Notes under the pieces: model-generated
What the model saw: the letters and a program-made list of their open reading frames with translations, nothing else
Told to the model about the DNA's origin: nothing
The model's database searches: none
Position numbers and translations under genes: made by a program
Part shown: positions 5,928-37,292 of the stretch, piece by piece
Layout: every line of letters starts with the position of its first letter
Position numbering within the stretch: position 1 is the stretch's first letter
Assembly (NCBI GenBank): GCA_963784995.1
Contig: CAWATZ010000006.1
Coordinates: 200,853 to 264,852 of the forward strand
Origin: an uncultured Planctomycetota bacterium
GTDB lineage: Bacteria; Planctomycetota; Planctomycetia; Gemmatales; Gemmataceae
Reading direction: 5' to 3'
DNA length: 64,000 nucleotides

Positions 5928-5949
5928 CCTCCAACGCGGAGAACCTTCC

Positions 5950-7194
5950 ATGTCCTGCCGCATTGCGTTGCTTGTGCTGTTCCTGACCAGCTCGCTGGCC
6001 TCCGCGGGCGACTGGCCGCAATGGCTTGGCCCCAATCGCGATGGGGCGTCGGCCGAGACCATCAACGCCTGGAAGGAAGCTCCGAAAACCGTCTGGCGTC
6101 AAGTGGTCGGCGAGGGCTACAGCGTTCCGGTCGTGGCCGCCGGGCGGGTCTTTGTGCATGCCCGCGTGGCCGGCAAGGACGAGGAAGAATTGCTGGCCCT
6201 GGACGCGGCCAGCGGCAAGCAGCTCTGGCGCACCTCCTACAAACGCGCTCCCTATTCGAGCATCATCAACAACGGTCCGCAGGCGACACCCTGCGTGGTT
6301 CGCGGCCGGGTCTACACCTTCGGCATCACCGGCGTCCTGGGGTGCTTCGAGGCCGAGAGCGGCAAGGAAATCTGGAGGGTGGACGCGCCGAAGCAACTGA
6401 AGACCCGGGTGCCGCAATTCGGCATGACCTGCTCGCCGCTGGTGGTCGGCAATCGCGTCCTGGTCGCCGTCGGCGGCAAGGGCAGCGCCGTCGTCGCCTT
6501 CGACGCCGACACCGGCGAGGTCGCCTGGAAGGCGCTGGACGGGCCGATCAGCACGGCGTCGCCGATCACCTACCTCAACCGGGCGAAAAAAGACATGGCC
6601 TCGCTGGAGGCGGTCTTCATCAACAACCGCAGCCTGGTGGCGCTGAATCCCTTTGACGGCGAGGTCAGCTGGGAGTACGCCCTGTCGGACCAGGCGGTCG
6701 GCACGGCCCCGTCGCCGGTGGCGGTCGGCGACTTGCTGCTGGCCAGCACGGTGAAGGCCGGCGGCATCGGCGTCAAGCTGACGCACGAGGACGGCAAGAC
6801 GACCGCGGACGGGGCCTGGAAGAACGCGGACCTGACCGGCTATTTCTGCACCCCGCTGGCCGTCGGCAAGGACCACCTGTACGCGGTGACCTCGACGCTG
6901 CTGCCCCAGCCGACCAGCACGCTGCGCTGCATCGACGTCAAGACCGGAAAGGAGGTCTGGAGCGAGCCGAAGATCGGCATCTTCCACGCGGGCCTGGTGC
7001 GGACCGGCGGCAACCGGCTGCTGGTCCTCAACGATAGCGGCCTGCTCCGGCTGGTGGAACACGACCCCAAGGGCTACCGCGAGCTGGCGAAGGCCCAGGT
7101 ATGCGGCTCGACCTTCGTGACGCCGGCCCTGGCCAACGGCCGGCTCTATGCCCGGGACAACAAGGGCGTGGTTTGTGTCCAGTTGGGGGAATGA
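5950..7194 (+). CDS. PQQ-like beta-propeller repeat protein (BamB-like), secreted
   Basis: Signal peptide. GDWPQW...G.VWR...G.VYV.. repeats typical of PQQ enzyme repeats. Confidence 0.75.
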   Translation: MSCRIALLVLFLTSSLASAGDWPQWLGPNRDGASAETINAWKEAPKTVWRQVVGEGYSVPVVAAGRVFVHARVAGKDEEELLALDAASGKQLWRTSYKRAPYSSIINNGPQATPCVVRGRVYTFGITGVLGCFEAESGKEIWRVDAPKQLKTRVPQFGMTCSPLVVGNRVLVAVGGKGSAVVAFDADTGEVAWKALDGPISTASPITYLNRAKKDMASLEAVFINNRSLVALNPFDGEVSWEYALSDQAVGTAPSPVAVGDLLLASTVKAGGIGVKLTHEDGKTTADGAWKNADLTGYFCTPLAVGKDHLYAVTSTLLPQPTSTLRCIDVKTGKEVWSEPKIGIFHAGLVRTGGNRLLVLNDSGLLRLVEHDPKGYRELAKAQVCGSTFVTPALANGRLYARDNKGVVCVQLGE

Positions 7195-7267: not shown

Positions 7268-9050
7268 ATGTCAAAACAACACCGATTCCCGTTCTTGGGC
7301 CTGCTGACACTGATCTGGTTGGGGTGGGGGCTGACCAGCACCGCCGCCGAACCCCTTCCCTCGCTCGACGATCTGTTGCGAGAGTATCAAACGCTTGGCT
7401 TGCCGGTGCCGCCCAGGAAAGCCAAACTGGTGCGGTACGAGGCCGGAGGAGGCGGGATCGTTGACCGCAAAGTCCAGCCCAAGGTCTATGGTCTGGCTTT
7501 CGAGGTCAAACAGGGAACCAAAACAGAGCATCCTTTTCTTCTCCGTGGCACTCTCGAGTGGCAGCCGAGGTGGGACCCTCACACCCGCGAAGTGGACCCG
7601 GAGCCAGCTGCCATCAAGGACCTTGTTGTGGGCCCGTCTGACAGGCTGGTTCTGGCCATCCAGTGTCATGAACGCGGCTGGCACAAGCTAGCCACCCATC
7701 TGCTGGAGAGGAGCCACAAAAAGTGCAAACAGCCACTGCGGAATCCATTGCTTCCGCTAGCGTGGTCCTACTGGGAAGACCATCTGACCACGCCGAAGAT
7801 CGACCGTGCCCCCATTGCCAAAAGGCTGAAAGAGCTTATCCGGCAGGACAAAGAACTGGACACGGAAAGCAACCGGGCGCTGCTCCGGTCGCTGGATCTC
7901 GCTCTCGTGCCCAGTAAGGCCAAACCGGGGAGCATCCAGGCGATGATCGACGACCTTGTCGATTACGACGCCGACACGGGAACCATGGGGTTTTTCAGGC
8001 GGGAGGATCGCTACTGGCGCATTGCCAGGCTGGGTTTTGACGCCGTGCCCGCTCTGATCGAACACCTGGACGACGACCGTCTGACACGAGCCAGGATGAT
8101 TGGTTTCCACAACTTCGGCTCCTGGAACCTTCGTGTTCAGGACGTTGTCAGCGACCTGTTGGAGGATCTGGCGGGGCAGAACGTTGGAAGGAATTGGCTG
8201 CGGCGTCAGCAGGGCTTTGCCGTCCAGAAGGCCGAGGCCCAAAAGTGGTGGGAGCAAGCCCGCAAGGTTGGCGAGGAAACCTACCTGCTGGATCACGTCT
8301 TGCCCGCTAAAGCCAAGGAAGGCGGTCGTGACCAGGTCGAGCGCTCACCTGGTGGAATTGATTCTGTTCAAGTATCCAAAGCACGTACCTTCTCTCTACC
8401 GGAAGGTCCTCGACGTGCGTCCCGAACTGGACAGCTCGATGCTGGCAGACGCCGTCCTCCAGTGCAAACTCCCGGACAAGGATAAACTGGATCAGTTTCT
8501 GTACGCTGCCAACCGCAAAGACCTCAATCACCGCCTGCCAGCTTTCTACGCCATCAAGGACCTGGACAAGAAGCGATTCACCTCGCTCTGGCTTGCCACC
8601 GTCGAAGCTTTCCCGAAGGACGTTCCGGGGCCCTACTGGAAATGTCCCCAAGCTGACATCGCCAGCATGGCGATCGAAGCCGATGACCCCCGCGTCTGGC
8701 AGACCCTGGAGAGAGTCGCCAAACGCTCTGCCCTCGGCTTGCGGATGGAGTTGCTGCGTTCAGTCGGTGCGCCAGGAGACAAGCGGCATCGGCTGGAGCG
8801 GCTCCGTCTCCTGGCATGTTTCCTGGATGATGCGACCTTGCGGGACGAGGATTCCAGCAGCAAGTTTGCCGGGCCAGGCGCCGGGTTCCCCTACCACAAG
8901 ATTGAGGTAAGAGATTTCGTGGCACTGGAGATCGCGCAATTGCTGGGGAACGACGTCGAATGGAACCTGGAACGAACTCCGGAACAATGGGCGAAAATCC
9001 GCAGTCAGGTTCAGGAGGCATTGAAGCGCGAATTCAGCAAGACGAAGTAG
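7268..9050 (+). CDS. Hypothetical secreted protein, probably one gene with an apparent frameshift near 8315-8335
   Basis: Signal peptide at 7268. Protein-like sequence switches from frame 2 (ORF 7268-8485) to frame 3 (ORF 8100-9050) around the codons PAKAKE|VVTRSSAHLVELILFKYPKH. Confidence 0.4.
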
Positions 9051-9143
9051 CGCCAAAGCCTGGAACCAGCCACAGATTCAGTCTCGGCCTCACCTTCTGA
9101 GCGGCCGTGGAACTTCTGAGTGGAGGAGGCCACGGTCGAACAA

Positions 9144-10490
9144 TCACAGGTCCGGCTGGAGCAAGCGAACGTGCCTCCCCTGCCGCTCCAGCAGCGCCTC
9201 GGCGGCCAGGTAGCCGCTGCGCACCGCTCCCTCCATCGTGGCGGGCCAGCCGGTGTTTGTCCAGTCACCGGCCAGCAGCAGGTTCCGGATCGGCGATGCC
9301 TGGCTCGGCCGCCACCGGTCCACGCCAGGGACCACGCTGAACGTCGCGGCATGCTCCGTCACCACCCGTCCGCGCAGCAGCCGAGCCTTGCGGGCCTCGG
9401 GAAACAGGCTCGCCAGCTCCTCCACGATCCGCCGTTGCACCTCCTCGTGCCCCAGGCCACGGAACTCCCGGGCGGCACTGACCACCACCTGGACGTAATG
9501 CTCGCCGGGGGAGGACTGACCTCGGTTGAAGAGCCACTGACCTAGCGTTTGGAGCAGCACCACGTGCGGCAGCCGGGTGATCGGCCGATCGTACCAGAGA
9601 TGGACGCTGGTTATTGGCGAAATCTCCAGCCGACGCAGGTTGGCGAAGGTCGGCTCGCTCTCGACCACGTTCTCCGGCAGCAGGTCGAGCAATCGGTCAA
9701 AGGGCACCGCGGGGATGAACCAATCAGCCTCCACGGTGCTACCGTCACGCATTCGCAATTGCTGGATTCGGCCGTCGGTCAGGGTAAGCTGCTTGCCCCC
9801 CTGTCCCAGCAGCAAGCGGACCCCGTGCTTGTCGAGCCACCCCTGCAGCTCCTGACCATAGAGCCGGCCCAGCGGCACCGTGGGCACCGACACCTCGAAT
9901 CCTCGGCGATGGCGCAGGAAAGCGTCCACGAACACCTTGCGGGCGTATTTCAGCCCGATCCGTTCCGGCGTCTCGTTCAGGGCGCTGACCAGGACCACGC
10001 TCCAGAAGCGTTCGATGACGCCGGGCGTCTGGCGATGTCGTTGCAGCCACTCCAGGAACGGCACATCGGCATCGGCGGGCGTGCGCTTCAGACAGGCCAG
10101 GGCCCAGGCGATCCGCAGTTTCTCCAGCGGCCCGAGGTAATGCGCCCCCAGGAACGCCCGGGCCAGGTGCAGCGGCGCGGGCAGCGGGTCGGCCTGGAAC
10201 TTGCTGATCCGGCGGTCGGGGGTCATGAAGTAGAGACACGGTTGCGGCTGCAGCAGGTGCTGGATGCCGACGGTCCGGCAGAAGTGGGCCAGGTTGGTGC
10301 AGCAGCCCATGCTGACGTGCTGGCAGGCGTCGATCAGCTGGCCCGTGCTGGTGTCGGTGAAGCTGCCGGCCCGGCCGCCCAGGCGGTTGCGCGACTCCAG
10401 CACGGTCACGTCCAGCCCCTGGCCGGCCAGCGCTGTCGCCGCCGCAAGTCCGGCCAGTCCGCCGCCGACTATGATCACCCGCTCCGCCAT
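9144..10490 (-). CDS. FAD-dependent amine-oxidase-family desaturase (HpnE-like squalene-associated desaturase)
   Basis: VIIVGGGLAGLAAA Rossmann N-terminus. ...LESRNRLGGRAGSF...QHV.MGCCTNL matches the HpnE / phytoene-desaturase-like pattern. Confidence 0.5.
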   Translation of the reverse strand: MAERVIIVGGGLAGLAAATALAGQGLDVTVLESRNRLGGRAGSFTDTSTGQLIDACQHVSMGCCTNLAHFCRTVGIQHLLQPQPCLYFMTPDRRISKFQADPLPAPLHLARAFLGAHYLGPLEKLRIAWALACLKRTPADADVPFLEWLQRHRQTPGVIERFWSVVLVSALNETPERIGLKYARKVFVDAFLRHRRGFEVSVPTVPLGRLYGQELQGWLDKHGVRLLLGQGGKQLTLTDGRIQQLRMRDGSTVEADWFIPAVPFDRLLDLLPENVVESEPTFANLRRLEISPITSVHLWYDRPITRLPHVVLLQTLGQWLFNRGQSSPGEHYVQVVVSAAREFRGLGHEEVQRRIVEELASLFPEARKARLLRGRVVTEHAATFSVVPGVDRWRPSQASPIRNLLLAGDWTNTGWPATMEGAVRSGYLAAEALLERQGRHVRLLQPDL

Positions 10491-10871
10491 TGCTTTCTCC
10501 GCATTTCCTTGGCTGCCTGGCCCAGGAACACGGTTGAAGTGTACTGCAGGTCAGTGCGTTTTGCCCAGGGCAGATCGGAGGAGCGCGGAATGGACCTCTG
10601 ACGCAAAGCAACGGCAGTCGTCTCCTGGCAGGCTGGCAGGGAAGCCGAAAACATCCGTTTGCTATCGGCGGGAGTCGCTCAGCGACAGCCAGGGACATCG
10701 CCCGGCACGAGCGGCCTTGCCCCTCTTCTGACACGCTCTGGCAGGTGAGTGCGTCGCCTTCTCTCCGGACGGTGCCACCCTGGCCAACTGCGGCGAGACG
10801 CCCGCGAGGGCCGGCGAGGTGCTGCTCTGGCGGAGCGGCCGGCAGCTGGAGTTGGGCGAGCGGTGCTCAGA

Positions 10872-11050
10872 CAATCGAAGCCGGCCTGCCTGCCCTGCCG
10901 GCCACTTTGCTGGGAATGGCGGAGACGCCGGAAGCAGTCCGGCATTGTCCCACAGATGCCAGGAAGGGGCATTTCGGCGCGTGCCTGCCACGCGCCAGGG
11001 TATTCGGGAGGGGCTGGCGTTCAAGCTGCCTCGCTGTCAATCCGTGCCAG
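10872..11050 (+). repeat. Conserved noncoding element, copy 1 (candidate structured RNA or cis-regulatory leader)
   Basis: About 80% identical to the reverse complement of 44925-45105. Both copies carry a hairpin at the same position with different stem sequences (gccgga/tccggc here, gccagag/ctctggc in copy 2). Confidence 0.45.
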
Positions 11051-11117
11051 CCAGCAGCAAGGGCAGGCACGGTCCATTCGGAGTGGCTGCGATCCCTTGT
11101 TGCTTCCCAATCCCGAT

Positions 11118-11214
11118 GGCCGAACGCCAAGGATTCGATCCGAACTGCCGGCAGACACCGCGACCGTCTGCCAAGCCGGATCGGCAGTTCGGATCGAATC
11201 CTTGGCGTTCGGCC
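11118..11214. repeat. Perfect 33-bp inverted repeat (hairpin) with a 31-nt loop that holds a nested 6-bp hairpin; lies at the 3' end of the CPBP gene
   Basis: Arm 11118-11150 ggccgaacgccaaggattcgatccgaactgccg is the exact reverse complement of arm 11182-11214. The loop contains gcagac...gtctgc. Confidence 0.8.
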
Positions 11215-11221
11215 CGGTTTA

Positions 11222-11911
11222 TCAGGAGTAACCCATCACTGCAACGATATCGAATAATGCGTGCAGACAGATCCCAGGCACCAAGCTCCCTTGCCACAAG
11301 AAAAGGCCAGCAAAGAGCAGCCCGACAACGAAATAGACTGGGAACAGAACCAGCCCAGCGATGCCATGGACAAAGACGAATGCCAGCGTCGCCAAGCCGA
11401 CGGCCCGCCAAGTGCGCATGCCACGCCCCTTCAGGAGACGGATGCTGAACCCGCGGTAAACCAACTCCTCGCAAAACCCCGCAGTGAAACTCATGAAGAT
11501 CCAGAACACTCGTTCGCCCAAAGTATTCGGGGACATCCCCGAGCGCTCCGATAATGGTCCATCGTTGGCGGCCGGGCTTTCGTGCAGGAGAATCAAGGCG
11601 AGACCGGCTACGAGGGGGATTCCAACCATCGCTGCGACGCGGACCGCCGAGAGATCAAGCCCGATGTCGTCCAGTCGCCCGCCTGCCCGCTTGAGAAGCA
11701 CGACGATCAAGGCAACGCTGCCCCAGTGAAGCAGAGCAATCGAGGCCCAGAACGACAGGTAGAATGCGTGGTTGCGCCGGAACCAGAGGCCGACCGACCA
11801 AGGTAAGAAGCTGTTGGCCAGGTAGAGGATCGGTAGCCCGACGAACACGAGCAGCACCTGCCAATGGGGTAAGCTCGTCGCAAACGTCGGAGCGGGTTCC
11901 TTTGTGGCCAT
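11222..11911 (-). CDS. CPBP family intramembrane metalloprotease (CAAX-protease-like)
   Basis: Polytopic membrane protein with the EELVYRG and FxxxH motifs. Confidence 0.8.
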   Translation of the reverse strand: MATKEPAPTFATSLPHWQVLLVFVGLPILYLANSFLPWSVGLWFRRNHAFYLSFWASIALLHWGSVALIVVLLKRAGGRLDDIGLDLSAVRVAAMVGIPLVAGLALILLHESPAANDGPLSERSGMSPNTLGERVFWIFMSFTAGFCEELVYRGFSIRLLKGRGMRTWRAVGLATLAFVFVHGIAGLVLFPVYFVVGLLFAGLFLWQGSLVPGICLHALFDIVAVMGYS

Positions 11912-11960
11912 CTTGAAGCCTCCCAGGGCCGAATAGGGCGTTCAGCCTTTGCCGAGACCG

Positions 11961-12869
11961 TCAGCGCGGCCGCAGCGGCACGTAGACGTCCGTCACCAAG
12001 TCCTCGGGAGGGGTCTCCCGCAGCGAATTGCGAAAGACGACGAACCCCTGGCAATCGGCCGGCTCCCGACCGCTCTGCGGCAGCCAGTCCCCGTACAGGC
12101 GGTCGTACATTTCGTACAGGCCCTCGTAGGGGCCCTTGTGGGTGACGACCGCGTACTCGCCGGCGGGAAGTTCCTGCTTGCCGATCTCCCCCTCCGGCTG
12201 AAAGGGCCGGTCAGTGGAGATGCAGGCATCGTAGCGGAGCTTGTCCCTCGCCGTGACTTCCGGGTTGTCACGGCTAATGCCCACCTTGAGGCTGCGCGGA
12301 CCCAATAGGCCGCGCGCCTTGGCCCAGGTCAGGAGTTTCTCCCAGGCCTTCGCGATTGACTCAGTTTCGTAGGGGCCGATGTGCCGGATGAAAGCGACCG
12401 TCATCGGCGCCATGGTCTGAATGCGGACATCCATCGGGGGACCTCCTCGTTGCACGGGTTTGAAATCTTCCAACCTCCCTTCGGGGAGGTAGCGAACTCG
12501 GGACGGGGCGAGCGAGCGGACCCGCTCGCGCTGCCGCTTGCGGTAGCCTGAGGGCGAGGTGCCGAAGAGCGCCCGGAACGCCCGGGTGAAGGACTCGTGG
12601 GTCTCGTAGCCGGCGTCGAAAGCGATGCCGGTGACCGGCTGGTTGCTGAACAGGAGCCGGTGCGCCGCCCGCTCCAGGCGCAGCCGGCGGACGTGTTCTT
12701 GGACAGACTCGCCGACCATCGCCCCGAAAATGTAGTGAAAGTGATGCGGCGAGAAGCGCGCAACGCGGGCCAGGTCTTCCAACGACAAGGCCTCGTCCAG
12801 GTGCTCTTGAATATGCACCAGGACCCGCAAGACTCGCTCTGTGTACGTCCGCTCGGTCTCGGATCGCAT
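11961..12869 (-). CDS. AraC-family transcriptional regulator with a GyrI-like effector-binding domain
   Basis: N-terminal AraC HTH (FSPHHFHYIFGAMVGESVQEHVRRLRLERAA, HESFTRAFRALFGTSP). C-terminal GyrI-like domain. Confidence 0.8.
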   Translation of the reverse strand: MRSETERTYTERVLRVLVHIQEHLDEALSLEDLARVARFSPHHFHYIFGAMVGESVQEHVRRLRLERAAHRLLFSNQPVTGIAFDAGYETHESFTRAFRALFGTSPSGYRKRQRERVRSLAPSRVRYLPEGRLEDFKPVQRGGPPMDVRIQTMAPMTVAFIRHIGPYETESIAKAWEKLLTWAKARGLLGPRSLKVGISRDNPEVTARDKLRYDACISTDRPFQPEGEIGKQELPAGEYAVVTHKGPYEGLYEMYDRLYGDWLPQSGREPADCQGFVVFRNSLRETPPEDLVTDVYVPLRPR

Positions 12870-22736: not shown

Positions 22737-23363
22737 ATGAACCCCAAAGCGATCTTCCTCGACAAGGACGGCACGCTCCTGGAGAACGTGCCTTACAACG
22801 TCGATCCGGAACAGGTCCGTCTGCTGCCCGGGGCCGTGGAAGGCCTGCTTCAGCTCCAGTCGGCCGGGTATCGTCTGGTGGTGGTGTCGAATCAGTCGGG
22901 TGTGGCCCGGGGCATGTTCCCGGAGCAGGCCCTGGTTGCCGTCGAGCAACGGCTGCGGAACCTGCTGAGCGCCGCGGGCGTGAACCTGGACCGCTGTTAC
23001 TTCTGTCCTCATCATCCCACGGGAGCGGTGTTGGATTATGCCATCGAGTGCGACTGCCGCAAACCTCGGCCGGGTTTGCTGATTCGGGCAGCACGGGAGT
23101 TGTCTCTCGACCTGGCTCAATGCTGGATGATCGGCGATTCGCCCAGCGACGTCGAGGCGGGGCAACGGGCCGGCTGCCGGACGCTGTTCATCGCCGATCC
23201 GCGCGAACCGCTGCCGCCGGGCATGCCCCAACCGAATGCCATGGTCGCCAACCTTATCGAGGCCGCTCGGCACGTCCTTCTTCCTGCTGCTCGGCTCACT
23301 TCCGCTGGGCCTTCTGTCCCTGGTCCTTTGTCCGATGGAAGGCACTGTAAATCAAGTGCTTGA
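22737..23363 (+). CDS. HAD-IIIA family hydrolase (D,D-heptose 1,7-bisphosphate phosphatase GmhB-like)
   Basis: FLDKDGTL (DxDGT) motif, VVVSNQSG, MIGDSPSD. Confidence 0.6.
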   Translation: MNPKAIFLDKDGTLLENVPYNVDPEQVRLLPGAVEGLLQLQSAGYRLVVVSNQSGVARGMFPEQALVAVEQRLRNLLSAAGVNLDRCYFCPHHPTGAVLDYAIECDCRKPRPGLLIRAARELSLDLAQCWMIGDSPSDVEAGQRAGCRTLFIADPREPLPPGMPQPNAMVANLIEAARHVLLPAARLTSAGPSVPGPLSDGRHCKSSA

Positions 23364-24726
23364 TCCGCCGCACCGGACTTGGGAACTCGCCAAGACCCAC
23401 TTGCTGACTCAGATGGTTGTTGTGCGGAAAGCGATCGACCGCCGCAATCAGTAAGATCGTCCAGACGCCCAGCACGGTTGTCACATATTTTCCATGACTG
23501 GCAAACAGCCGGCCTGCTTGCATCAAACCATAGGAAAGCAGCAGGGCCACTCCCAGCACGCTCACAATGCACTTGTAAGCCAGAAGGGGCACACAGAGGT
23601 AGGGCCGAAACTTGATGACCAGGTGTGTTGTAAATCCCATTCCGATCATCGCGAGCAAGACAAGTGGGATGATCGATTGCGCGCCCGGACTGTTCCAGAC
23701 CTTGCGCAGCGTGCGAGCGAAAGCCCACAGGAACACGACAAAGAACATGCCCGCGTAAAAGTGCCAGTAGAACAGATGGTGCATCGGCACCAGGTGCATT
23801 CCCTCCGGATGATAACCATGCTGTTCCGCAATGATTTTCTTGTCGCCATGATAGTACAGCGAGTTGGAAGAAACAACGAAGGAAGGAAGAAACGTACTCA
23901 CCGCAATGTATGGGTAGGTGATCAGGTTCGAGAGCACGTCTTCGGCAGCCATGATCGGATAGTGATAGGTGAAGATGGTATCCGATTCATGCCCGGGAGT
24001 GAAGTGCTCGCCACTGGAAGGCAGTTTTCCCGCGACGTAGCCAACGGTCACAAGGACGGTGGACAGGGCAACAAAGCGGACCCGGTGGAGATACTGCTTG
24101 CTCAGTTCAGGATGGCGACGCAGCAGCAGATAGAGGAAGGCGCAGCATGTCAGGAGGAACACGCAATAGTCGAGCCACTGCTCCCAGCACAGGGCAAACA
24201 CAATCAGGCTGACCACGAAACCGATCTTCGGGCCGCGCAGTTGCGTGGTGCGCGTTGCCAGTGCGTACAGGTAGAACAGGTTGATGAGCAAGTAGAGGAC
24301 AAACAGCACCCAGAGGTGGCCGCCGCTGTGGACGTAGGAGTAGTTGAACTGGGAACCAAAGCCCAGGCAAATGGCCAGGGTGCTGCTGAAGACTCGCGAG
24401 CGCAGCAGTACCCAGGAGCCAACGTAGGACACGACCACAAGCAGGCCCAGCAGTCCCACAAAGATCCAGGGCCCCGGCACCACCAGGTTCACCAGACCGA
24501 TCAGGGCAAAGCCCGTGGGCGTCCAGCGATAGCAGTCGCTGCCGAAATCGAACGGCAGCAGCAGCTTCCAGGGCTGGGCGACCAGCTTGGGGTCAAGAGG
24601 ATGGTTCAGCTCCCTGGGTCCGGTGGCCAGCGGCAGCCGGAGCAGCAGCCAGAGAAGCAGGATGGGCAGAAGCGGGAGCAAGCCGTGCAACCAGTCGCGC
24701 CTTGGAAGCGGTTGGGCACTGTCCAT
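23296..24726 (-). CDS. Polytopic integral membrane protein (hypothetical; glycosyltransferase-39 / DUF2079-like topology)
   Basis: More than 10 TM helices. Start taken at MDSAQPL (24726). The upstream part of the long ORF overlaps the family-A palindrome and is not protein-like. Confidence 0.5.
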   Translation of the reverse strand: MDSAQPLPRRDWLHGLLPLLPILLLWLLLRLPLATGPRELNHPLDPKLVAQPWKLLLPFDFGSDCYRWTPTGFALIGLVNLVVPGPWIFVGLLGLLVVVSYVGSWVLLRSRVFSSTLAICLGFGSQFNYSYVHSGGHLWVLFVLYLLINLFYLYALATRTTQLRGPKIGFVVSLIVFALCWEQWLDYCVFLLTCCAFLYLLLRRHPELSKQYLHRVRFVALSTVLVTVGYVAGKLPSSGEHFTPGHESDTIFTYHYPIMAAEDVLSNLITYPYIAVSTFLPSFVVSSNSLYYHGDKKIIAEQHGYHPEGMHLVPMHHLFYWHFYAGMFFVVFLWAFARTLRKVWNSPGAQSIIPLVLLAMIGMGFTTHLVIKFRPYLCVPLLAYKCIVSVLGVALLLSYGLMQAGRLFASHGKYVTTVLGVWTILLIAAVDRFPHNNHLSQQVGLGEFPSPVRRIKHLIYSAFHRTKDQGQKAQRK

Positions 24727-24791
24727 GCGATTCTCCTCCCATCCTGGGTGACGGGCGCCCCTCTGGATTTTGGCGGCGACGGGTCGCAGTG

Positions 24792-24870
24792 GCCGAGCCG
24801 CGCACGCAGCGCAGCGGAGTAAGCGGGCTTTCAGCCCGCTTACTCCGCTGCGCTGCGTGCGCGGCTCGGC
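24792..24870. repeat. Family-A palindromic element, copy 1: perfect 38-bp stem, 3-nt loop
   Basis: gccgagccgcgcacgcagcgcagcggagtaagcgggct ttc agcccgcttactccgctgcgctgcgtgcgcggctcggc. The 32-nt core is identical to copy 2 at 47840-47915. Confidence 0.85.
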
Positions 24871-25069
24871 GAACCTGCCAACATCGAGCAGCAACAGCCT
24901 ACCACGTTCTGGCGAGCCGGAGAAGAGCAGCTCGGCCGGCCCCGGCCGGGGTCGGGCCACGACGGAAGGGCCCGCCGGGACTTCGTCTTGCGTGCCTTGC
25001 CTTGACCGCCTACACTCTAGATCGGGTTAGACCCGCAGGGGTGGATCTGTCCTGCCGAGCTGGAGACGT

Positions 25070-26824
25070 ATGAACTATAATCCCGCCAATCCTCTTATCG
25101 TCGTCGCGGATCGCACGGTCCTGGTCGAGGTGGACAACCCTCTCTACGCGGAGGCCCGCGATGCCCTCGCTCCGTTCGCCGAGCTGGAGAAAAGCCCCGA
25201 GCACATCCACACCTATCGTCTGACCCCTCTGTCGCTGTGGAACGCCGCGGCCGCGGGCATGACCGCCGCGGCCATGATCGAAGTGCTGCAGCGCTATACC
25301 AAGTATCCGCTGCCGACCAACATCGGCACTGACATTGCCGACCTGGTCAGCCGCTATGGCCGGGTCAAACTGGTCCGGCACACCGAAGGTGCCACGGGTG
25401 ACGGCAGCGTGCCGCTCCGCCTGGTCTGTGCCGACGTGCCGCTGCTGGAGGAACTGGCCCGACAGCCCAAGGTCCGCGAGCATCTGGGCCCCCGGCTGGA
25501 CAGCACCAGCTTCCAGATTGACGCGGGCAAGCGCGGCGTCCTCAAACAGGCCCTGATCGGGGTCGGCTATCCTGCCGAGGACCTGGCCGGCTACACCGAG
25601 GGAGCGGCGCTGCCGATCCACCTGCGTGAACTGGGCCGAGTGCAGGGCCTGCCCTTCCACGTCCGCGACTATCAGCGCGAGGCCAGCGAGATCTTCTACG
25701 CCGGCGGCGATGCCCGCGGCGGCAGCGGCGTCATCGTGCTGCCCTGCGGAGCGGGCAAGACCATCGTCGGCATCGCCACCATGGCCCTGATGCAGCGCTC
25801 GACCCTGGTGCTGACCACCGGCATCACGGCTGTCAAGCAGTGGCGCCGCGAGATCCTGGACAAGACGGACCTGAGTGAGGATCAGATCTGCGAGTACACC
25901 GGCGAAAGCAAGGAGATTGGCCCGGTCACCCTGGCGACGTATCAGATCCTCACGTACCGCAATGACAGGAACGAGGAGTTCCCGCACTTCCACCTGTTCG
26001 ACCAGCGCGACTGGGGCCTGATCATCTATGACGAGGTCCACCTGCTGCCGGCCCCGGTCTTTCGGGTGACCGCCCAGATCCAGGCCCGCCGCCGGCTCGG
26101 CTTGACCGCCACCCTGGTGCGCGAGGACGGCCGGGAATCGGACGTGTTCAGCCTGATCGGACCCAAGAAATACGATGTTCCCTGGCGCGAGCTGGAGTCG
26201 CGCGGCTGGATCGCCGAGGCGGCCTGCACCGAGGTCCGCATCGGGCTGCCCGAGTCGATCCGCATGGAGTACGCGGTGGCCGAGCAGCGCAACAAGTACC
26301 GCATCGCCAGCGAGAACCCGGCCAAGGAGGACGTGATTGCCGCCCTGCTGGAGCGGCACAAGGATTGCCGGGTGCTGATCATCGGGCAGTATCTGAAACA
26401 GTTGCGCGACTTGCGCGAACGCTTCCAGATGCCGCTGATCACCGGACAGACCGCGAACTCCGAGCGTGAGGACCTTTACGGCAAGTTCCGCCGGGGCGAG
26501 ATCCGGCAGTTGATCCTGTCCAAGGTGGGCAACTTTGCGATCGACCTGCCGGACGCGAACGTACTGATTCAGGTGTCGGGCACGTTCGGCTCGCGCCAGG
26601 AGGAGGCCCAGCGGCTGGGGCGAATCCTGCGGCCCAAGTCGGGTGGCGAGGTGGCCCACTTTTACACGCTGGTGACGCGCAACACCCGCGAGCAGGAGTT
26701 CGCCCACCATCGCCAGCTGTTCCTGACCGAGCAGGGGTACAGTTACCAGATCGTCGATGGGACCGATTTGCTGGCGGGGGCGTCGGCCAACGGGGAGAGG
26801 GCGAAGTGTGCCCAGGCGGGGTGA
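25070..26824 (+). CDS. XPB/ERCC3-like superfamily-2 DNA helicase
   Basis: N-terminal damage-recognition-like domain. Walker A LPCGAGKT, DEVH box, helicase C motifs. Confidence 0.8.
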   Translation: MNYNPANPLIVVADRTVLVEVDNPLYAEARDALAPFAELEKSPEHIHTYRLTPLSLWNAAAAGMTAAAMIEVLQRYTKYPLPTNIGTDIADLVSRYGRVKLVRHTEGATGDGSVPLRLVCADVPLLEELARQPKVREHLGPRLDSTSFQIDAGKRGVLKQALIGVGYPAEDLAGYTEGAALPIHLRELGRVQGLPFHVRDYQREASEIFYAGGDARGGSGVIVLPCGAGKTIVGIATMALMQRSTLVLTTGITAVKQWRREILDKTDLSEDQICEYTGESKEIGPVTLATYQILTYRNDRNEEFPHFHLFDQRDWGLIIYDEVHLLPAPVFRVTAQIQARRRLGLTATLVREDGRESDVFSLIGPKKYDVPWRELESRGWIAEAACTEVRIGLPESIRMEYAVAEQRNKYRIASENPAKEDVIAALLERHKDCRVLIIGQYLKQLRDLRERFQMPLITGQTANSEREDLYGKFRRGEIRQLILSKVGNFAIDLPDANVLIQVSGTFGSRQEEAQRLGRILRPKSGGEVAHFYTLVTRNTREQEFAHHRQLFLTEQGYSYQIVDGTDLLAGASANGERAKCAQAG

Positions 26825-26835
26825 CGTGCGAGGGC

Positions 26836-26919
26836 CCCCGGGTTGCGCTGCGCTCCACCCGGGGCTTTAGTCCCAACACCCGGAGTAAAGCCCCGGGTGG
26901 AGCGCAGCGCAACCCGGGG
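26836..26919. repeat. Family-B palindromic element: perfect 34-bp stem, 16-nt loop, between the XPB gene and the downstream ORF
   Basis: ccccgggttgcgctgcgctccacccggggcttta ... taaagccccgggtggagcgcagcgcaacccgggg. Shares gcgctgcgc and ggagtaa(a)gc motifs with family A. Confidence 0.8.
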
Positions 26920-26945
26920 TGCCCCCCGGGAACGGAGAGGCGTTG

Positions 26946-27221
26946 ATGTTGAACGATCCGATCCGCCGGACGCCCACGGGCCGGCTGCCCATCAAGCTGC
27001 ACCGCCGCGTGTGCCTGGTGCAGACCGAGGACGCCGTGCTGGCCGAGGAGTTGCTGGCGCGCAAGAAGCTCGCCCAGGACATCGCCGGCCGGCTCACGGA
27101 GCGCGTTTTGCTGATCCGCAGCGGGCGGGTCGAGGCCGTGGTGCAGGAATTGCAGAAGATGGGGCACACGCCCCAGGTCAGCACACGCACGCTCGATGAC
27201 AAGGTGATTCCAGGGAAATGA
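26946..27221 (+). CDS. Small hypothetical protein co-operonic with the XPB-like helicase
   Basis: ORF of 91 aa. Its stop overlaps the next start (ATGA). Confidence 0.35.
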   Translation: MLNDPIRRTPTGRLPIKLHRRVCLVQTEDAVLAEELLARKKLAQDIAGRLTERVLLIRSGRVEAVVQELQKMGHTPQVSTRTLDDKVIPGK

Positions 27222-29455
27222 CTCCCGCTACAGACGCCTACTGGTCCGATCTGCTGCAGCGCACCCTGGCCTGCTACGACGAGCCGCTCTTGCGTCAGGT
27301 CGCGGGCCGACTGGTCAAGCCACGCAATCAGTGGCCAATCGAGGACCTGATCCAGCGCAGCGGGGACACGGCGACCAATCCCGCGGTCATCGATCGCCGG
27401 CTGCAGGAGTTGGAGCCAGCCAGCCGGCAAGTCCTGGCCCTGATCGGCTGCTCCCGGCAGCCACTGTGGCACCTGGGCAACCTGATCGAGATGGTCATGG
27501 CCCTGGGGCACAGCGATGGCCTCAAGCCGATCTTCACCCTGTTCGAGAACGGCCTGCTCTTTCCCCGCCTGCTGACGCTCGACACACCGAACTCTCTGGC
27601 CAGCAAGATCCGCTCGTTCGAGTTCTGGCTGGCCATCCCGGGGAGCAGCCGGCAGGTGTTCACGCACCCGCAGATCGCGGCCCGGGCGGTCAGCGAGCCG
27701 CTGGGCTTGCCCGACCTTTCCGTCCCGCTCTCGCCGGCCCCGCCGGCGAATGGTGAGCCAGTCGAGACTGAGGAGCGTTGCGCTCCGGCCGACAGGTCGG
27801 CCTGCGCTTCGCCGTTGCCCGATCTGACACCGGGGGGCGGCCCCCAGGAAGCGGACGGGCTGGAGTGGCTGCTGCGCCTGGCCGTGCTGTGGCAGCAGGT
27901 GACGACCTCCCCGCTCCGGCGGACACAGCAGGGCGGCTTTTTCAAGCGCGACCAGGAGCGCTTGCAGTCCGATCCGGTGCTGACCGCGGTGCCTCACGAA
28001 AACCTGGTCGAGACCCTCGATCCGGGCTTCCTGCTGGCCGCCCTGGCCGAGCAGCAGGGGCTGCTGGTCGAGGCCGATGGCGAGCTGCGTGCCGGGCCCT
28101 TGCCGGCCGCGTGGGAAGCAGGGCTGTGGCCAACACTGGAATCCTTCTGGTCCGAGCTGTGGCAGCTGGGGACGTGGAACCCAATGGACGGCTGGCGTGC
28201 CGAGCCGATGGCGGGCAATCCCTTCGCCTCTGCCTCCCTGCTGACCTTCCTGCTGCTAGCCCGCGTGGGCGGAGACTCCGCCCCCGGCTGGATGAGCCCC
28301 GCGGTGATCCAGAACTGGCTGCTGCGTCATCATCCCTTCTGGAAGGGCGACGCGCTCCGCCCGTCGTGGCAACAGCCGTGGCTTGAGCGCTTCTTGCTGG
28401 GCGTCGCTTACCACTTCCGCCTGGTACTCGCCGCCCGCTCCGCCGACGGCGGCTGGCTGGTCCGGCTGAGTCCCGTGGCCCGCTGGCTGCTCCATCAGGC
28501 CGAGCCGCCCGAGACGCCGCCGGTCTTTGCCCAGAGCCTGCTGATCCAACCCAACCTGGAGATCATCGCCTATCGCCAGGGGCTGACGCCTGCCCTGATC
28601 CAGAAGCTGACGCGCTTTGCCCGGTGGCGCAGCCTGGGAGCGGCCTGCACCTTGCAACTGGAGCCGGAGAGCGTCTACCGCGCCCTGGAAGGCGGCCAGA
28701 CGTTCGACAGTATCCGGCTGACGCTGGAGCAGCACGGCACCCGGGCGGTGCCGGCCGCGGTCCTCGACGCCCTGCGCACCTGGTCCAACAAGCGCGACCG
28801 GATCACCGTCTATCCCTCGGCCACGCTGCTGGAGTTCACCTGCGCCGAGGACCTCAACGACGCCCTGGCGCGGGGCTTGCCGGGGGTGCGCATCGCCGAC
28901 ACGCTGGCGGTGGTAGCCAGCGAGGACGACATCGACTTCAGTCACTTCCGGCTGACCGGCACGCGCGATTACAGTCTCCAGCCGGAGAAGTGCGTCACGC
29001 TGGAGCCGGACGGAGTGACGCTGACCGTGGACCTGAGCCGATCGGACCTGATGCTGGAGACGGAGCTGCCGCGCTTCGCCGACCCGCTCAGCACCTCGGC
29101 GGCCCAGAATCAACGCCAGTACCGGCTGACCCCGGCCTCGCTGGGTCGGGCGAGGAATGCGGGGATCGCGGCGACCACACTGGAAACGTGGTTCCAGCAG
29201 CGCTGCGGCCAGCCGCTGTCGCCGGCCGCCCGGATGCTGCTGGCCGGGACGCAGTTGCCCGCACCGCAGTTCCAGCGGTTACTGATCTTGCAGGTGCCCA
29301 GCGCCGAACTGGCCGACGGCCTGATGCAATGGCCGACCACGCGCGGGCTGATCGCCTCCCGGCTTGGTCCGACGGCGCTGGTCGTGACTGAGGAGCAGGC
29401 CCCGGTGCTGCGCGAACGGCTGCGCGAGGCCGGTCTGCCGGTGCCGGAGCTTTGA
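27218..29455 (+). CDS. Large conserved hypothetical protein translationally coupled to the XPB operon (possible Bax1-like helicase partner)
   Basis: 745-aa ORF with an ATGA overlap to the upstream gene. I could not recognise a family-level motif. Confidence 0.4.
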   Translation: MTPATDAYWSDLLQRTLACYDEPLLRQVAGRLVKPRNQWPIEDLIQRSGDTATNPAVIDRRLQELEPASRQVLALIGCSRQPLWHLGNLIEMVMALGHSDGLKPIFTLFENGLLFPRLLTLDTPNSLASKIRSFEFWLAIPGSSRQVFTHPQIAARAVSEPLGLPDLSVPLSPAPPANGEPVETEERCAPADRSACASPLPDLTPGGGPQEADGLEWLLRLAVLWQQVTTSPLRRTQQGGFFKRDQERLQSDPVLTAVPHENLVETLDPGFLLAALAEQQGLLVEADGELRAGPLPAAWEAGLWPTLESFWSELWQLGTWNPMDGWRAEPMAGNPFASASLLTFLLLARVGGDSAPGWMSPAVIQNWLLRHHPFWKGDALRPSWQQPWLERFLLGVAYHFRLVLAARSADGGWLVRLSPVARWLLHQAEPPETPPVFAQSLLIQPNLEIIAYRQGLTPALIQKLTRFARWRSLGAACTLQLEPESVYRALEGGQTFDSIRLTLEQHGTRAVPAAVLDALRTWSNKRDRITVYPSATLLEFTCAEDLNDALARGLPGVRIADTLAVVASEDDIDFSHFRLTGTRDYSLQPEKCVTLEPDGVTLTVDLSRSDLMLETELPRFADPLSTSAAQNQRQYRLTPASLGRARNAGIAATTLETWFQQRCGQPLSPAARMLLAGTQLPAPQFQRLLILQVPSAELADGLMQWPTTRGLIASRLGPTALVVTEEQAPVLRERLREAGLPVPEL

Positions 29456-33608: not shown

Positions 33609-36600
33609 TCAGTCGGGAGAAGAGAACTGGTGCGGGAACTCGCGGCGCAGCTGGGGCCAGAGGTCCTTGAAATACCCCGGCTCCGTGAGTTCCAGGCCGC
33701 CGCTGCGCGGCAGGAGCCGTTGTCCCGCCAGGGCGCGGGCCATCCAGACCAGGTCGTCGGCGGAGTGATTGTCCGACGTCAGCGGCCAGCGCGTCACGGT
33801 GCCGTCCCTGGTGCGCGTCAGGATAGCGTCCCCGGACCGGGTGAACACTGTCTCGGCCACCGGGCCGGCGTGGGGGAGGGGCGGGGTCACCGGCAAGCCG
33901 CTGTCCACGTCCCAGACAATCACGACGCCGTCGGTCTGGGCGGTGGCCAGCAAGTGCAGCGGCGCCGGGCCGAACACGGCCCGCTCGACCGGGTGGGGAT
34001 GGTGCAGCGACAGCTGGACCGGTTCGCCCGTCTCCGTCTGCCACAGTCCCACCTTGCCGTCCTTGAACCCGGCCAGGAACAGCTGGCCATCGTCGCGGAA
34101 AGCCAGGCAGGATGCCTCGGTCAGGCCCCGCTGCGCCGGGCCCAACTGCCGGCCCGTGGTCGCTTCGCGCATCTCGACCTGCCGGCGCTCCCGGATCAGG
34201 GCCAGGACAACGAACCGGCCGTCGGGACTCAGCTGCCGCAGGCCCGCCCGGCCTGCCGGGCCCCCCCCACCAGGGGCGGGGACCTTCGCGCTATGGACCA
34301 CCTTCCCCTCTGTGGTCCACTGCCGCAGTTCGTTGCCCTCATCGAGCACAAGCAGCCGGGGACGTTCCGGGTCGAAGGTCATTTGCCAGGGGACCGCGTT
34401 CAGCTTCAGGTCCGGGGAAGTCGGTTTGGCGGTCAGGGTGTCCCAGATGCGAACGGTCCTGTCTCCGGACGTGGCCAGCCAGCGGCCATCCCGGCTGAAG
34501 ACCGCCTGGGTCCAGATCAGCTGGCTGTTTGGTCCCGGCAGTGGGCGACCCTTGTGGCCGTCCCACAAGGACACCGTGCCGTCCGGGTGCTTCACCACCT
34601 GACAGTGGCCGTCGGGACTGAGAGCCAGCACCGAGCCGGGGGGCGCGGACGGGCCGGCCAGGACCTGGCGATTGCGAGGAGTCAGATTGTACACCTTCAC
34701 GGCCGAATCCATCGTGAGGACCACCAGACGCAGACCGTTCATGCTCAGACGGACCTCCTTGACCGGTGCGCCGACCTGGAGAGACGGAGTCAACGGCTCT
34801 CCCGTGAGGGCATTCCAGACCCGAGGGGCCGTGGCCGCCACAGTCACGATCCGGCGTCCGTCGCTGCTGAAGGCGGCGCGGCGCACCACGCCGGCGTGCG
34901 CCAGCACCGGCTCCTCCCGCAGGTGGCCTTTCAGGTCGCGCTGAAGCAGCTGAGGGCCGTGGGCCGTCAGGATCGTTCCCGTCTGGGGTCCCAGCAACTC
35001 GCCGGCCGGTTCCACGAGGTTGGTCAGGGTCCCGAATTCGAGTTTCCCGGTGGCGGCATCCCAGAGGCGAGACGGCCCCTTGTTGGGCACGGTCAGAAGG
35101 GACTTGCCATCCCCGCTGAAGGCCAGGGAGCGGATGCCCTGCTGCCCTTCGGGGCCCCCCGGGCGTAACTTCAGGACGGTGGAAGTCGGCAGCGGACCCG
35201 GGAACCCGGTCCAGATGCGCACCTCCTGCACGTGCTCGGCCGACGGGCCCGTCACCGCTGCCAGCGACCGGCCGTCCGGACTGAAGACGAGATGGAAGAT
35301 GCGGGCGCTGTGCTTCATAACGGCCGCGATGACCCTGCCGTTTCTGGGGTCGCGCACGGAGACGGTGTTGTCGCTGTCGGCCAGGGCCAGGCGCTTGCCG
35401 TCCGGGCTGAGGGCCAGCTGCTGCACCGGGTTGCTTGTCGGCTGCCAGGCCGTGGGCTGGCCGCTGGTCAGGTCCAGCAGTCTGGCATTGTCCTTCTCGT
35501 CCAGGTAGGCCAGCAGGGGCCAGCGGGCCGCCGTGACGGCGTGTCGGGCTTTGTCCGGCAGCGTCATCAGCTCACCGCTGCCGACCTTGCCGATCTGGAC
35601 CGTTCGGTCCTTGCCGAGCAGCACGACTTTCCGGGCTTCCGGGCTGAGCAGCACCGACTCGATCGGCCGCTCGGGGAACCAGGCCTGGATCAGCCGGGGA
35701 CAGCGCCGCAGGGCCTCGGCGATCCGCACCCGCTCCACCGCCGCGGCCCGGGGCTGGCGGCTTTCCAGCTGTAATGCCTCGGTCAACCACACCAGCGCCA
35801 CGGTCGGGTTGCCCGCCTCCAGTTCCTCCATCCCCTGGCCGACGTAGAGCCGGGCCAGCAAGGTGTTGTTGTCCTCGCGCAGCTGGTGCTCGCGCTCCAG
35901 GCCCGCCCGCAGGGTGAGCATGGCGTCCTCGTTCAAGGCACGCAAGTCCCGCTCTTCCTGGGCTTGCTTCTCCACCTGCTCGCGCAAGGCTTTCTCGGTG
36001 TCGGCCCGCCGGGCCTCCCGGTCGCGGTCGGCGACAACGTTGACCACGCCCAGGCTCAAGGCGATGGCCAGCAGCACCAGGCCCAGACAGGAGGCCAGCA
36101 GAATCCCGGCCGCCACCGGCCGGCGGCGAAACCAGTGCCGCAGCCGGCCGGCGCGGGTGGGCGGACTGATTGTCACCGGATCGCCGCGCCGCCAGTTTTC
36201 CAGGTCCTGAGCCAGCGCTGCCGCCGAGCGATAGCGCTGGGCCGGCTCCTTGTTCAGACAGCGCAGCACGATCTTTTCCAGGACGGGATCAACCCGGGCA
36301 TCGATCTGCCGGAGCGGCGTCGGTGGTTCCTCAACCGCCTTGAGGAGCGTGTCGAAAGGCGTTTCGCCAACAAACGGAGGCCGGCCCGCCAGCAGGAAGT
36401 ACAGGATCGCCCCCAGGCTGTAAACGTCGGCGGCCACCGTGAGCGGGAAGCGGGACGGAAAGGCCTGCTCCGGAGCCATGTAACAGGCGGTGCCGACAAT
36501 GCTCATCGACTGGGTGATCTGACTGGCCCGACGGAACACCTTGGCCAGCCCGAAGTCAGTGACCACCGGTTCGGGCGGATGGTCCCCGGCCTCCGCCGGC

Positions 36601-37292
36601 TCGGCCATCAGCAGGATGTTGGCCGGTTTCAGGTCGCGGTGCAGGACGCCCTGGTCGTGGGCATGCTGCACCGCCCGGGCCACCGTGGCCAGCAGCGCGG
36701 CGGCCAGTTGCTGCCGTTGCCGGAAGAGGCGGCTCGGCTGCTGCTGGCTGCCGGTCCAGCCCTGCCGTTCCGCCCACTGGGCGAGGTTGCCGCCGGCGAG
36801 GTACTGCATGCTGAAGTAGAGCTGCTGGTCGATCTCGCCGAACTCGTAAACGGTGACGATGTGCGGGCTGTCGAGCCGGCCAATGACCTCGGCCTCGGTC
36901 AGGAATCGCTGCCGGCCCTCGGCGTCGGTCAGCTCGGGGCGGATGGTCTTGATGGCGACGATGCGGTTGAGCGAGCGCTGCCGGGCCCGGTAGACAATGC
37001 CCATGCCGCCGCGAGCGATCTCTTGAAGCAGGTCGTAATCGCCCAGGCGCAGCAGCATCGGCCCATTCAGGTCGGGAGCCGTTGGAGGAGGGGCCGCGGG
37101 ATTGTTGGCCAGGGGCTGCAAGCACTGGCGATTGTCGAGGAAGCTTTCTAGCTCTTCGGCCAGGTCGGGGTGAGCGCGCAGCAGCGCGGCCCGATCAGGG
37201 GCCCGGCCGTTTTCGACCGCCTCCAGGTACTCGGCCAGCACTTCGTTGAGACGCTGCTCGCGCTGGGACGTCCGCGAACGGGTCACTCCCAT
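33609..37292 (-). CDS. Serine/threonine protein kinase with a C-terminal WD40 beta-propeller
   Basis: Kinase subdomains (GGMGIVYRA, HRDLKPANILL, DFGLAK), a TM segment, then multiple WD40-like repeats. Confidence 0.85.
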   Translation of the reverse strand: MGVTRSRTSQREQRLNEVLAEYLEAVENGRAPDRAALLRAHPDLAEELESFLDNRQCLQPLANNPAAPPPTAPDLNGPMLLRLGDYDLLQEIARGGMGIVYRARQRSLNRIVAIKTIRPELTDAEGRQRFLTEAEVIGRLDSPHIVTVYEFGEIDQQLYFSMQYLAGGNLAQWAERQGWTGSQQQPSRLFRQRQQLAAALLATVARAVQHAHDQGVLHRDLKPANILLMAEPAEAGDHPPEPVVTDFGLAKVFRRASQITQSMSIVGTACYMAPEQAFPSRFPLTVAADVYSLGAILYFLLAGRPPFVGETPFDTLLKAVEEPPTPLRQIDARVDPVLEKIVLRCLNKEPAQRYRSAAALAQDLENWRRGDPVTISPPTRAGRLRHWFRRRPVAAGILLASCLGLVLLAIALSLGVVNVVADRDREARRADTEKALREQVEKQAQEERDLRALNEDAMLTLRAGLEREHQLREDNNTLLARLYVGQGMEELEAGNPTVALVWLTEALQLESRQPRAAAVERVRIAEALRRCPRLIQAWFPERPIESVLLSPEARKVVLLGKDRTVQIGKVGSGELMTLPDKARHAVTAARWPLLAYLDEKDNARLLDLTSGQPTAWQPTSNPVQQLALSPDGKRLALADSDNTVSVRDPRNGRVIAAVMKHSARIFHLVFSPDGRSLAAVTGPSAEHVQEVRIWTGFPGPLPTSTVLKLRPGGPEGQQGIRSLAFSGDGKSLLTVPNKGPSRLWDAATGKLEFGTLTNLVEPAGELLGPQTGTILTAHGPQLLQRDLKGHLREEPVLAHAGVVRRAAFSSDGRRIVTVAATAPRVWNALTGEPLTPSLQVGAPVKEVRLSMNGLRLVVLTMDSAVKVYNLTPRNRQVLAGPSAPPGSVLALSPDGHCQVVKHPDGTVSLWDGHKGRPLPGPNSQLIWTQAVFSRDGRWLATSGDRTVRIWDTLTAKPTSPDLKLNAVPWQMTFDPERPRLLVLDEGNELRQWTTEGKVVHSAKVPAPGGGGPAGRAGLRQLSPDGRFVVLALIRERRQVEMREATTGRQLGPAQRGLTEASCLAFRDDGQLFLAGFKDGKVGLWQTETGEPVQLSLHHPHPVERAVFGPAPLHLLATAQTDGVVIVWDVDSGLPVTPPLPHAGPVAETVFTRSGDAILTRTRDGTVTRWPLTSDNHSADDLVWMARALAGQRLLPRSGGLELTEPGYFKDLWPQLRREFPHQFSSPD

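Follow-up and report, generated by a model that had tools for sequence, protein, structure and literature searches.

With which partner proteins does a bacterial XPB helicase work? The question is raised by three adjacent genes in a 64,000-nucleotide (nt) stretch of high-GC DNA (about 66% GC) from an uncultured planctomycete of the family Gemmataceae (GenBank assembly GCA_963784995.1, contig CAWATZ010000006.1), called the window throughout; all coordinates are positions in the whole window. A helicase gene is followed there by a small and a large gene, encoding proteins of 91 and 745 amino acids (aa), which an earlier reading made from the letters alone (the sequence-only reading) had taken for XPB and two partners, the larger perhaps a nuclease or a scaffold, or else for a defence system. 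The XPB-p52-p8 translocase module is regarded as a eukaryotic invention within transcription factor IIH (TFIIH). With a probability of roughly 0.7, the three genes of the window encode a bacterial counterpart of this module. The features on which the argument turns are the following, given with the strand and the part of the protein concerned.

25070 to 26824, plus strand: XPB helicase gene, 584 aa, NCBIfam NF045503.
25094 to 25498, plus strand: XPB N-terminal domain (NTD), aa 9-143, Pfam Helicase_C_3 (PF13625).
25658 to 26761, plus strand: XPB superfamily 2 (SF2) helicase core, aa 197-564, ResIII and ERCC3_RAD25_C.
26836 to 26919, no strand assigned: hairpin between the XPB gene and the small gene, arms 26836-26873 and 26882-26919.
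26946 to 27221, plus strand: small gene, 91 aa, conserved core aa 13-78, putative p8/Tfb5-like subunit.
27218 to 29455, plus strand: large gene, 745 aa, putative p52/Tfb2-like subunit.
27218 to 28507, plus strand: N-terminal region of the large protein, aa 1-430, helical and winged-helix-like domains with a disordered linker at aa ~161-205.
28538 to 28927, plus strand: module 1 of the large protein, aa 441-570, clutch-like Helicase_C_3, predicted XPB-NTD binding domain.
28994 to 29452, plus strand: module 2 of the large protein, aa 593-745, internal duplicate of module 1.
29273 to 29452, plus strand: p8-like C-terminal dimerisation domain of the large protein, aa 686-745, the last 60 residues of module 2.

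The first gene encodes, as the sequence-only reading had it, a bona fide XPB; the protein has an N-terminal Helicase_C_3 domain. The NCBIfam model repair_heli_XPB (NF045503, cutoff 610) scored 870 bits, its positions 1-548 aligning with aa 8-562 of the protein, and the Pfam domains were Helicase_C_3 (PF13625, 125 bits, aa 9-143), ResIII (PF04851) and ERCC3_RAD25_C (PF16203, 158 bits). The best relatives in the PDB were human and yeast XPB (297 bits), followed at a distance by archaeal XPB (145 bits); the alignment to the human chain 8ebt_A begins at query residue 6, and the core is covered over residues 198-563. Actinomycete XPBs are 52-55% identical to the protein of the window. An N-terminal domain resembling a damage-recognition domain had been predicted, and a domain is indeed present, but it is the XPB NTD, whose counterpart in TFIIH binds p52, so that damage recognition describes it only in part. 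In TFIIH the NTD of eukaryotic XPB pairs with the clutch domain of p52 (PMC6422496), and it is to this NTD that residues 9-143 correspond.

For the 745-aa protein no recognisable family had been reported from the sequence, a statement that did not hold: Pfam Helicase_C_3 (PF13625) matched it with 66 bits (cutoff 34), and it is a helicase-less homologue of p52/Tfb2 (GTF2H4; PF03849, TIGR00625), with winged-helix domains, a clutch-like Helicase_C_3 domain and a small C-terminal domain. As a single query it retrieved only yeast TFB2 from the PDB, weakly (E 0.35). The family to which it belongs comprises 1,211 clusters at 50% identity (E<=1e-3), and a profile of 46 diverse members (called A1) matched, at E<=0.001, only the p52/Tfb2 subunit of TFIIH, from yeast (5e-6), human (GTF2H4, 4e-5) and C. 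thermophilum (5e-4); no XPB chain was reported in this PDB search. The matched region covers the clutch and, in C. thermophilum, reaches ~100 positions further upstream. The AlphaFold2 (AF2) model of the large protein (predicted local distance difference test, pLDDT, 89.6; predicted template modelling score, pTM, 0.73) gave a similar picture, the 18 top Foldseek matches in the PDB all being p52/Tfb2 chains of TFIIH structures (E 5.5e-8 to 5e-5). Several of these alignments, at ~590 columns, take in the whole p52 chain, winged-helix array included; XPB chains rank after them and are matched through the XPB N-terminal domain.

In the model, two stretches of helical and winged-helix folds, aa 1-160 and aa 206-430, lie on either side of the disordered linker and are followed by modules 1 and 2, which resemble each other closely (hhalign probability 97%, E 1e-10); residues 686-745 are modelled as beta-alpha-beta-beta-alpha. 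The large protein thus has in common with p52 a clutch of the XPB-NTD fold, winged-helix domains upstream of it, a small C-terminal dimerisation domain and a co-linear architecture overall, and p52/Tfb2 chains are both its only significant profile matches in the PDB and its best full-length fold matches. Like p52 it has no catalytic domain (Pfam, NCBIfam and Foldseek searches turned up no effector domain, be it a nuclease, a protease, an NADase or another), and like p52 it goes with an NTD-bearing XPB, beside which it is encoded and with which it presumably acts. It differs in being ~300 residues longer, in a sequence identity of only 13-23%, in having no p34, p62 or p44 partners nearby for its N-terminus, and in being bacterial and co-transcribed with its partners. 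Databases label it only as 'helicase-associated domain-containing' or 'hypothetical'. Some relatives are longer still: the large proteins of Deinococcus (L083 4705-7152 and L084 4885-7320) carry ~80 extra residues past the p8-like domain and that of Actinomyces (L088 1568-4111) ~130 extra residues, extensions that are absent from the Gemmatales proteins.

The small ORF is a genuine gene. Its product is the better conserved of the two, with 1,946 database homologues (E<=0.01) that are typically ~80 aa long and 70-90% identical, compared with 40-63% among relatives of the large protein, and with a core that is nearly invariant; no Pfam or NCBIfam family matched it. A profile of the small family found its best alignment in the large protein at aa 686-745, with an hhalign probability of 80% (E 1.4e-5), and it is on account of this match to the last 60 residues that we read the small protein as a paralogue of its neighbour's C-terminal domain. 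When the same profile was compared with the whole PDB, the top five matches were yeast TFB5 (E 0.05; Tfb5 residues 4-55 of 72), and a second profile that included Deinococcus and other divergent members also placed yeast TFB5 in the top five positions (E 0.027). A single targeted hhalign comparison with a Tfb5 alignment gave a probability of 49% (P 1.8e-4, 52 columns, 27% identity). In TFIIH, the C-terminal domain of p52 is the dimerisation module that binds p8 (PMC6422496), and the small-protein scores taken together appear to reproduce this relationship between p8 and the p52 C-terminal domain. By sequence comparison, then, the product of the second gene is small and highly conserved, is paralogous to the C-terminal domain of the large protein, and has Tfb5/p8 as its closest solved relatives.

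Similarity to p8 (TTDA/Tfb5, GTF2H5; PF06331) extends to the size of 70-90 aa, to being a paralogue of the C-terminal domain of a p52-type partner, and to a hydrophobic pattern that aligns over Tfb5 residues 4-56; its gene, in addition, accompanies that of the p52-like protein, and in some genomes the two are fused. It has invariant motifs of its own that are absent from Tfb5, RIPVKLHRRV on the N-terminal and GHTPQV on the C-terminal side. Its fold would be that of the C-terminal domain of the large protein, which is modelled well and to which it aligns.

Are the three genes a unit? In the window the small open reading frame (ORF) starts with an ATG at 26946, 6 nt downstream of a GGAGAG Shine-Dalgarno sequence, and its stop shares 4 nt with the start of the large gene (ATGA, 27218-27221), an overlap that the sequence-only reading had described correctly. 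Among the 67 Gemmatales loci with enough upstream sequence, the order XPB-small-large was found in 54, the large gene alone in 9, and the small and large genes without XPB in 3; in about half of the Gemmatales loci the small and large genes either overlap, by up to 4 nt, or lie no more than a few tens of nt apart. Most Gemmatales loci keep the cluster at high identity, 71-83% for XPB and 62-89% for the small protein. More distant trios occur in L082, L092 and the contig carrying P0321, and a more distant small-large pair without XPB in L091. The genes flanking the cluster (two upstream ORFs, a HAD hydrolase, a DoxX-like gene and a GDSL lipase) did not keep their adjacency in 80 related loci, the DoxX-like gene alone recurring, in the closest relative; because of this, the conserved unit is the XPB-small-large trio without its flanking genes.

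The partnership of the small and large proteins has genomic evidence of its own, namely the 4-nt overlap, an adjacency that is kept where XPB lies elsewhere, and a natural fusion. In the latter (L081 6001-8481, JGI 3300054971), the small protein forms the N-terminus of the large one in a product of 826 aa, encoded directly after XPB with a 4-nt overlap and belonging to a 90% cluster of 32 members; in L092, a relative, an unfused pair (3696-6232) is accompanied by the same downstream genes as the fusion (MFS transporter, UDG-family glycosylase and TrmE).

The genome scan was made with a 12-sequence alignment and returned only Gemmatales loci; other phyla were reached through a plasmid collection. 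On three Deinococcus megaplasmids the genes for XPB, for a small hypothetical protein and for a 'helicase-associated domain-containing protein' stand in the same order, and on two of them, where the small proteins have 109 and 99 aa and the large proteins 815 and 811 aa, the 4-nt overlap is the same and the small proteins match the Gemmatales hidden Markov model at E 1e-10. A member of the large family also lies beside XPB in Paenibacillus (Bacillota), Acaryochloris (Cyanobacteriota) and Actinomyces (Actinomycetota), and the neighbours outside Planctomycetota and Deinococcus scored E 1e-13 to 1e-16 against the A1 profile where they were scored. By position and size alone, a similarly sized hypothetical gene was placed beside XPB in Gloeocapsopsis, and by annotation name a 'helicase-associated domain-containing' gene ~3.5 kb from XPB in Tsukamurella. 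A haloarchaeal plasmid XPB (L089) was without a p52-like neighbour. The adjacency of XPB and the large gene thus spans five phyla, and on this indirect ground the large protein may bind XPB and modulate its ATPase. Synteny, which had been proposed as a check on the idea that the downstream genes encode dedicated XPB partners, bears that idea out, the three-gene order being kept in Gemmatales and Deinococcus and the XPB-large link in three more phyla.

Two observations on individual loci are recorded here. Gemmatales-type XPB clusters were found on contigs of metagenome-assembled genomes (MAGs) labelled Alcaligenaceae (L022, L025, L033, L051, L058), Bacteroidales (L066) and Kuenenia (L040, L043), with 44-52% identity to the large protein of the window; these bins are probably mislabelled or contaminated. 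In L082, and there only, genes for an AAA_5 ATPase and a DUF2357/PDDEXK_7 protein (8476-12172), which form a McrBC-like restriction pair, lie ~2 kb downstream of the XPB trio.

How might the three proteins act? The products resemble the three TFIIH subunits and their genes are coupled, and from this a complex and an activity of the TFIIH kind may be proposed. In TFIIH, the dimer of p8 and the p52 C-terminal domain cradles, together with the clutch, the RecA2 lobe of XPB (PMC6422496), and p52/p8 stimulate the ATPase of XPB and cap its rate on DNA (PMC7708078). By the same scheme, the clutch-like domain of the large protein (aa 441-570) would pair through a beta-sheet with aa 9-143 of XPB, the small protein and aa 686-745 of the large protein would form a pseudo-symmetric heterodimer, and the second RecA lobe of XPB would be held by the two proteins, which would thereby determine how fast XPB hydrolyses ATP and translocates on double-stranded DNA. 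No vWA or p62-like genes were found in a search limited to the neighbourhood in the window; because p34 and p62 equivalents are not seen nearby, the N-terminal winged-helix array of the large protein may be free to bind DNA or to recruit another factor. The cellular process served by the trio is probably some form of DNA repair.

Two known systems invite comparison. In the archaeal XPB-Bax1 pair a dedicated XPB partner is likewise encoded beside the helicase gene, but Bax1 is a nuclease and binds XPB differently (PMC7672443), whereas the large protein has no nuclease similarity in sequence or fold, and the XPB of the window has an NTD of the eukaryotic type and a score against eukaryotic XPB that is double its score against archaeal XPB. 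The sequence-only reading had argued from the archaeal arrangement; a dedicated partner was a sound expectation, and the word 'scaffold' came close to the mark, but the analogy is to the eukaryotic XPB-p52-p8 set. The XPB of M. tuberculosis (Rv0861c) belongs to the same NCBIfam equivalog family as that of the window and has been characterized biochemically, as a lone enzyme (PMC3353954). Rv0862c of the same species may be a member of the large-protein family; the papers in which it is named do no more than list it. In actinomycetes, too, p52-like genes annotated as 'helicase-associated domain-containing' stand next to XPB or in its vicinity, but the actinomycete loci that were read showed no separate small gene, unlike the window.

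Several results weigh against a TFIIH-like module. The curated model TIGR00625 (tfb2) matched the large protein at the equivalent position, but its score of 10.9 bits (E 0.16) falls far short of the cutoff of 320.7, and PF03849 (Tfb2) was not listed at E<=1. The clutch domain is equally close to the XPB NTD and to p52, and p52 has no equivalent of the second Helicase_C_3-like module at aa 593-745. As for the small protein, each number linking it to Tfb5 is weak by itself, the statistics being marginal, and PF06331 (Tfb5) matched none of 20 small-family members even at E<=10, where only scattered chance hits appeared. The AF2 model of the small protein alone (pLDDT 66, pTM 0.29) showed a long helix in place of the p8 fold and was unusable. 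Finally, no separate small gene was found in the examples from Bacillota, Cyanobacteriota and Actinomycetota. Since the clutch stands no closer to p52 than to the XPB NTD, and since the curated Tfb2 and Tfb5 models failed, 'p52-like' and 'p8-like' are safer labels than 'orthologues of p52 and p8'.

The same failures, and the assignment by Pfam of the large-protein domain to Helicase_C_3 and not to Tfb2, would suit a different origin, in which the large protein arose from bacterial XPB by loss of the helicase, as a duplicated XPB NTD joined to winged-helix domains, and the small protein is a split-off fragment of that NTD; the likeness to p52 and p8 would then reflect common Helicase_C_3 descent or parallel evolution, and the proteins might bind XPB all the same. 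It also fits this origin that both Helicase_C_3-like modules have the p8-like unit as their C-terminal sub-element. We consider it improbable, as the family profile matches p52/Tfb2 and not XPB in the PDB, the C. thermophilum p52 match continues upstream of the clutch, and Foldseek aligns nearly the whole p52 chain together with its winged-helix array. Moreover, the locus repeats the three-part logic of TFIIH (an NTD-bearing XPB, a protein with clutch and C-terminal domain, and a small paralogue of that C-terminal domain), for which an independent reinvention is the less parsimonious account.

A role in defence had been put forward as an alternative from the sequence; a system against phages or plasmids, with the helicase as motor and the large protein as sensor or effector, is very unlikely. 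The XPB helicase core does give partial PADLOC matches, to PbeA (66 bits) and to other helicase models, but neither the small nor the large protein matched anything in PADLOC-DB 2.0, no effector domain was detected, and no relatives turned up in phage genomes or viral structure sets. The clusters of Deinococcus and cyanobacteria are carried by large plasmids, where transposases, toxin-antitoxin genes and a RES-domain gene lie nearby, and in L082 the AAA_5 and PDDEXK_7 genes are close to the trio; in the window, by contrast, the cluster lies among ordinary genes and in no defence island, and its retention at high identity in most Gemmatales loci looks like the vertical inheritance of a housekeeping function. 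It is because the cluster is plasmid-borne in some phyla that we leave defence a small residual probability.

That the 745-aa protein is a Bax1-like or PD-(D/E)XK nuclease cutting XPB-opened DNA as in archaea, a proposal that had only its size and position beside XPB in its favour, can be set aside as scarcely credible, since no DUF790/Bax1 or nuclease family was found in Pfam or NCBIfam, since the structure prediction that had been suggested as a check yielded a confident model matching only p52, the XPB NTD and winged-helix proteins, and since the residues that are invariant or nearly so in the 46 aligned sequences are scattered, with no D...(D/E)XK pattern seen, albeit in the absence of an explicit motif search.

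If a bacterial counterpart of the XPB-p52-p8 module is accepted, a wider proposal can be made, tentatively and at short of even odds: that the module exists in several phyla as a free-standing three-gene, sometimes two-gene, bacterial operon that has its ancestry in common with the eukaryotic module. In that case the whole module could have come to eukaryotes from bacteria, and the archaeal XPB-Bax1 lineage would not have been its source. We leave a bacterial origin of the eukaryotic module open because the XPB of the window has the NTD of the eukaryotic enzyme and a score against eukaryotic XPB about double that against archaeal XPB; transfer in the reverse direction, from eukaryotes to bacteria, is possible.

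No description of bacterial p52 or p8 homologues was found in the literature covered, from which subscription-only papers were absent. According to a detailed study of M. tuberculosis XPB, bacteria lack homologues of p52 (PMC3353954), and a 2026 review describes the function of bacterial and archaeal XPB as still elusive (PMC13024598). What appears to be new here is a bacterial, operon-encoded, partly duplicated and sometimes fused form of what would be a complex of known type. If XPB has p52- and p8-like partners, bacterial XPB has probably been studied so far without its regulatory subunits, and the operon would offer a soluble minimal model for the tuning of XPB by p52/p8, which bears on the mutations of xeroderma pigmentosum and trichothiodystrophy, and a concrete, testable handle on the origin of this part of TFIIH. 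As to annotation, more than 1,000 50%-identity clusters of large proteins and about 2,000 unnamed small proteins would receive a name.

Between the XPB gene and the small gene lies the palindrome that the sequence-only reading had noticed; it is present as described, except that its arms measure 38 nt instead of 34. The arms are 97% complementary and enclose an 8-nt loop (84 nt in total), and the predicted RNA fold has an energy of -105 kcal/mol (z = -12). The hairpin occurs once in the window and was absent from all 88 other loci searched; in the closest relative, whose large protein is 80% identical, the spacer between XPB and the small gene is only 18 nt. No run of T follows the stem, and a terminator scan found no terminator-like site there. 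A function as a regulatory element of the operon was considered and rejected, as the hairpin is not conserved and has no terminator-like site. It seems to be a lineage-specific palindromic insertion outside the conserved module, resembling recent insertions of the repetitive extragenic palindromic (REP) or miniature inverted-repeat transposable element (MITE) type, and is perhaps an mRNA-stabilising or REP-like element.

Upstream of XPB, two long ORFs overlap on opposite strands (23296-24960, minus, and 23494-24822, plus), neither of which has a Pfam match; the minus-strand ORF is probably the real gene of the pair, because at the same position the closest relative encodes a protein of 462 aa on the minus strand. 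Downstream, past the DoxX-like and GDSL-lipase genes and 1.6 kb from the cluster, lies a gene of the histone deacetylase family (PF00850; 31076-32083, plus), for which no evidence of a link to XPB was seen. Further on, a minus-strand gene (33609-37292) encodes a protein of 1,227 aa in which Pfam recognises an N-terminal Ser/Thr protein kinase domain and long WD40 beta-propeller arrays.

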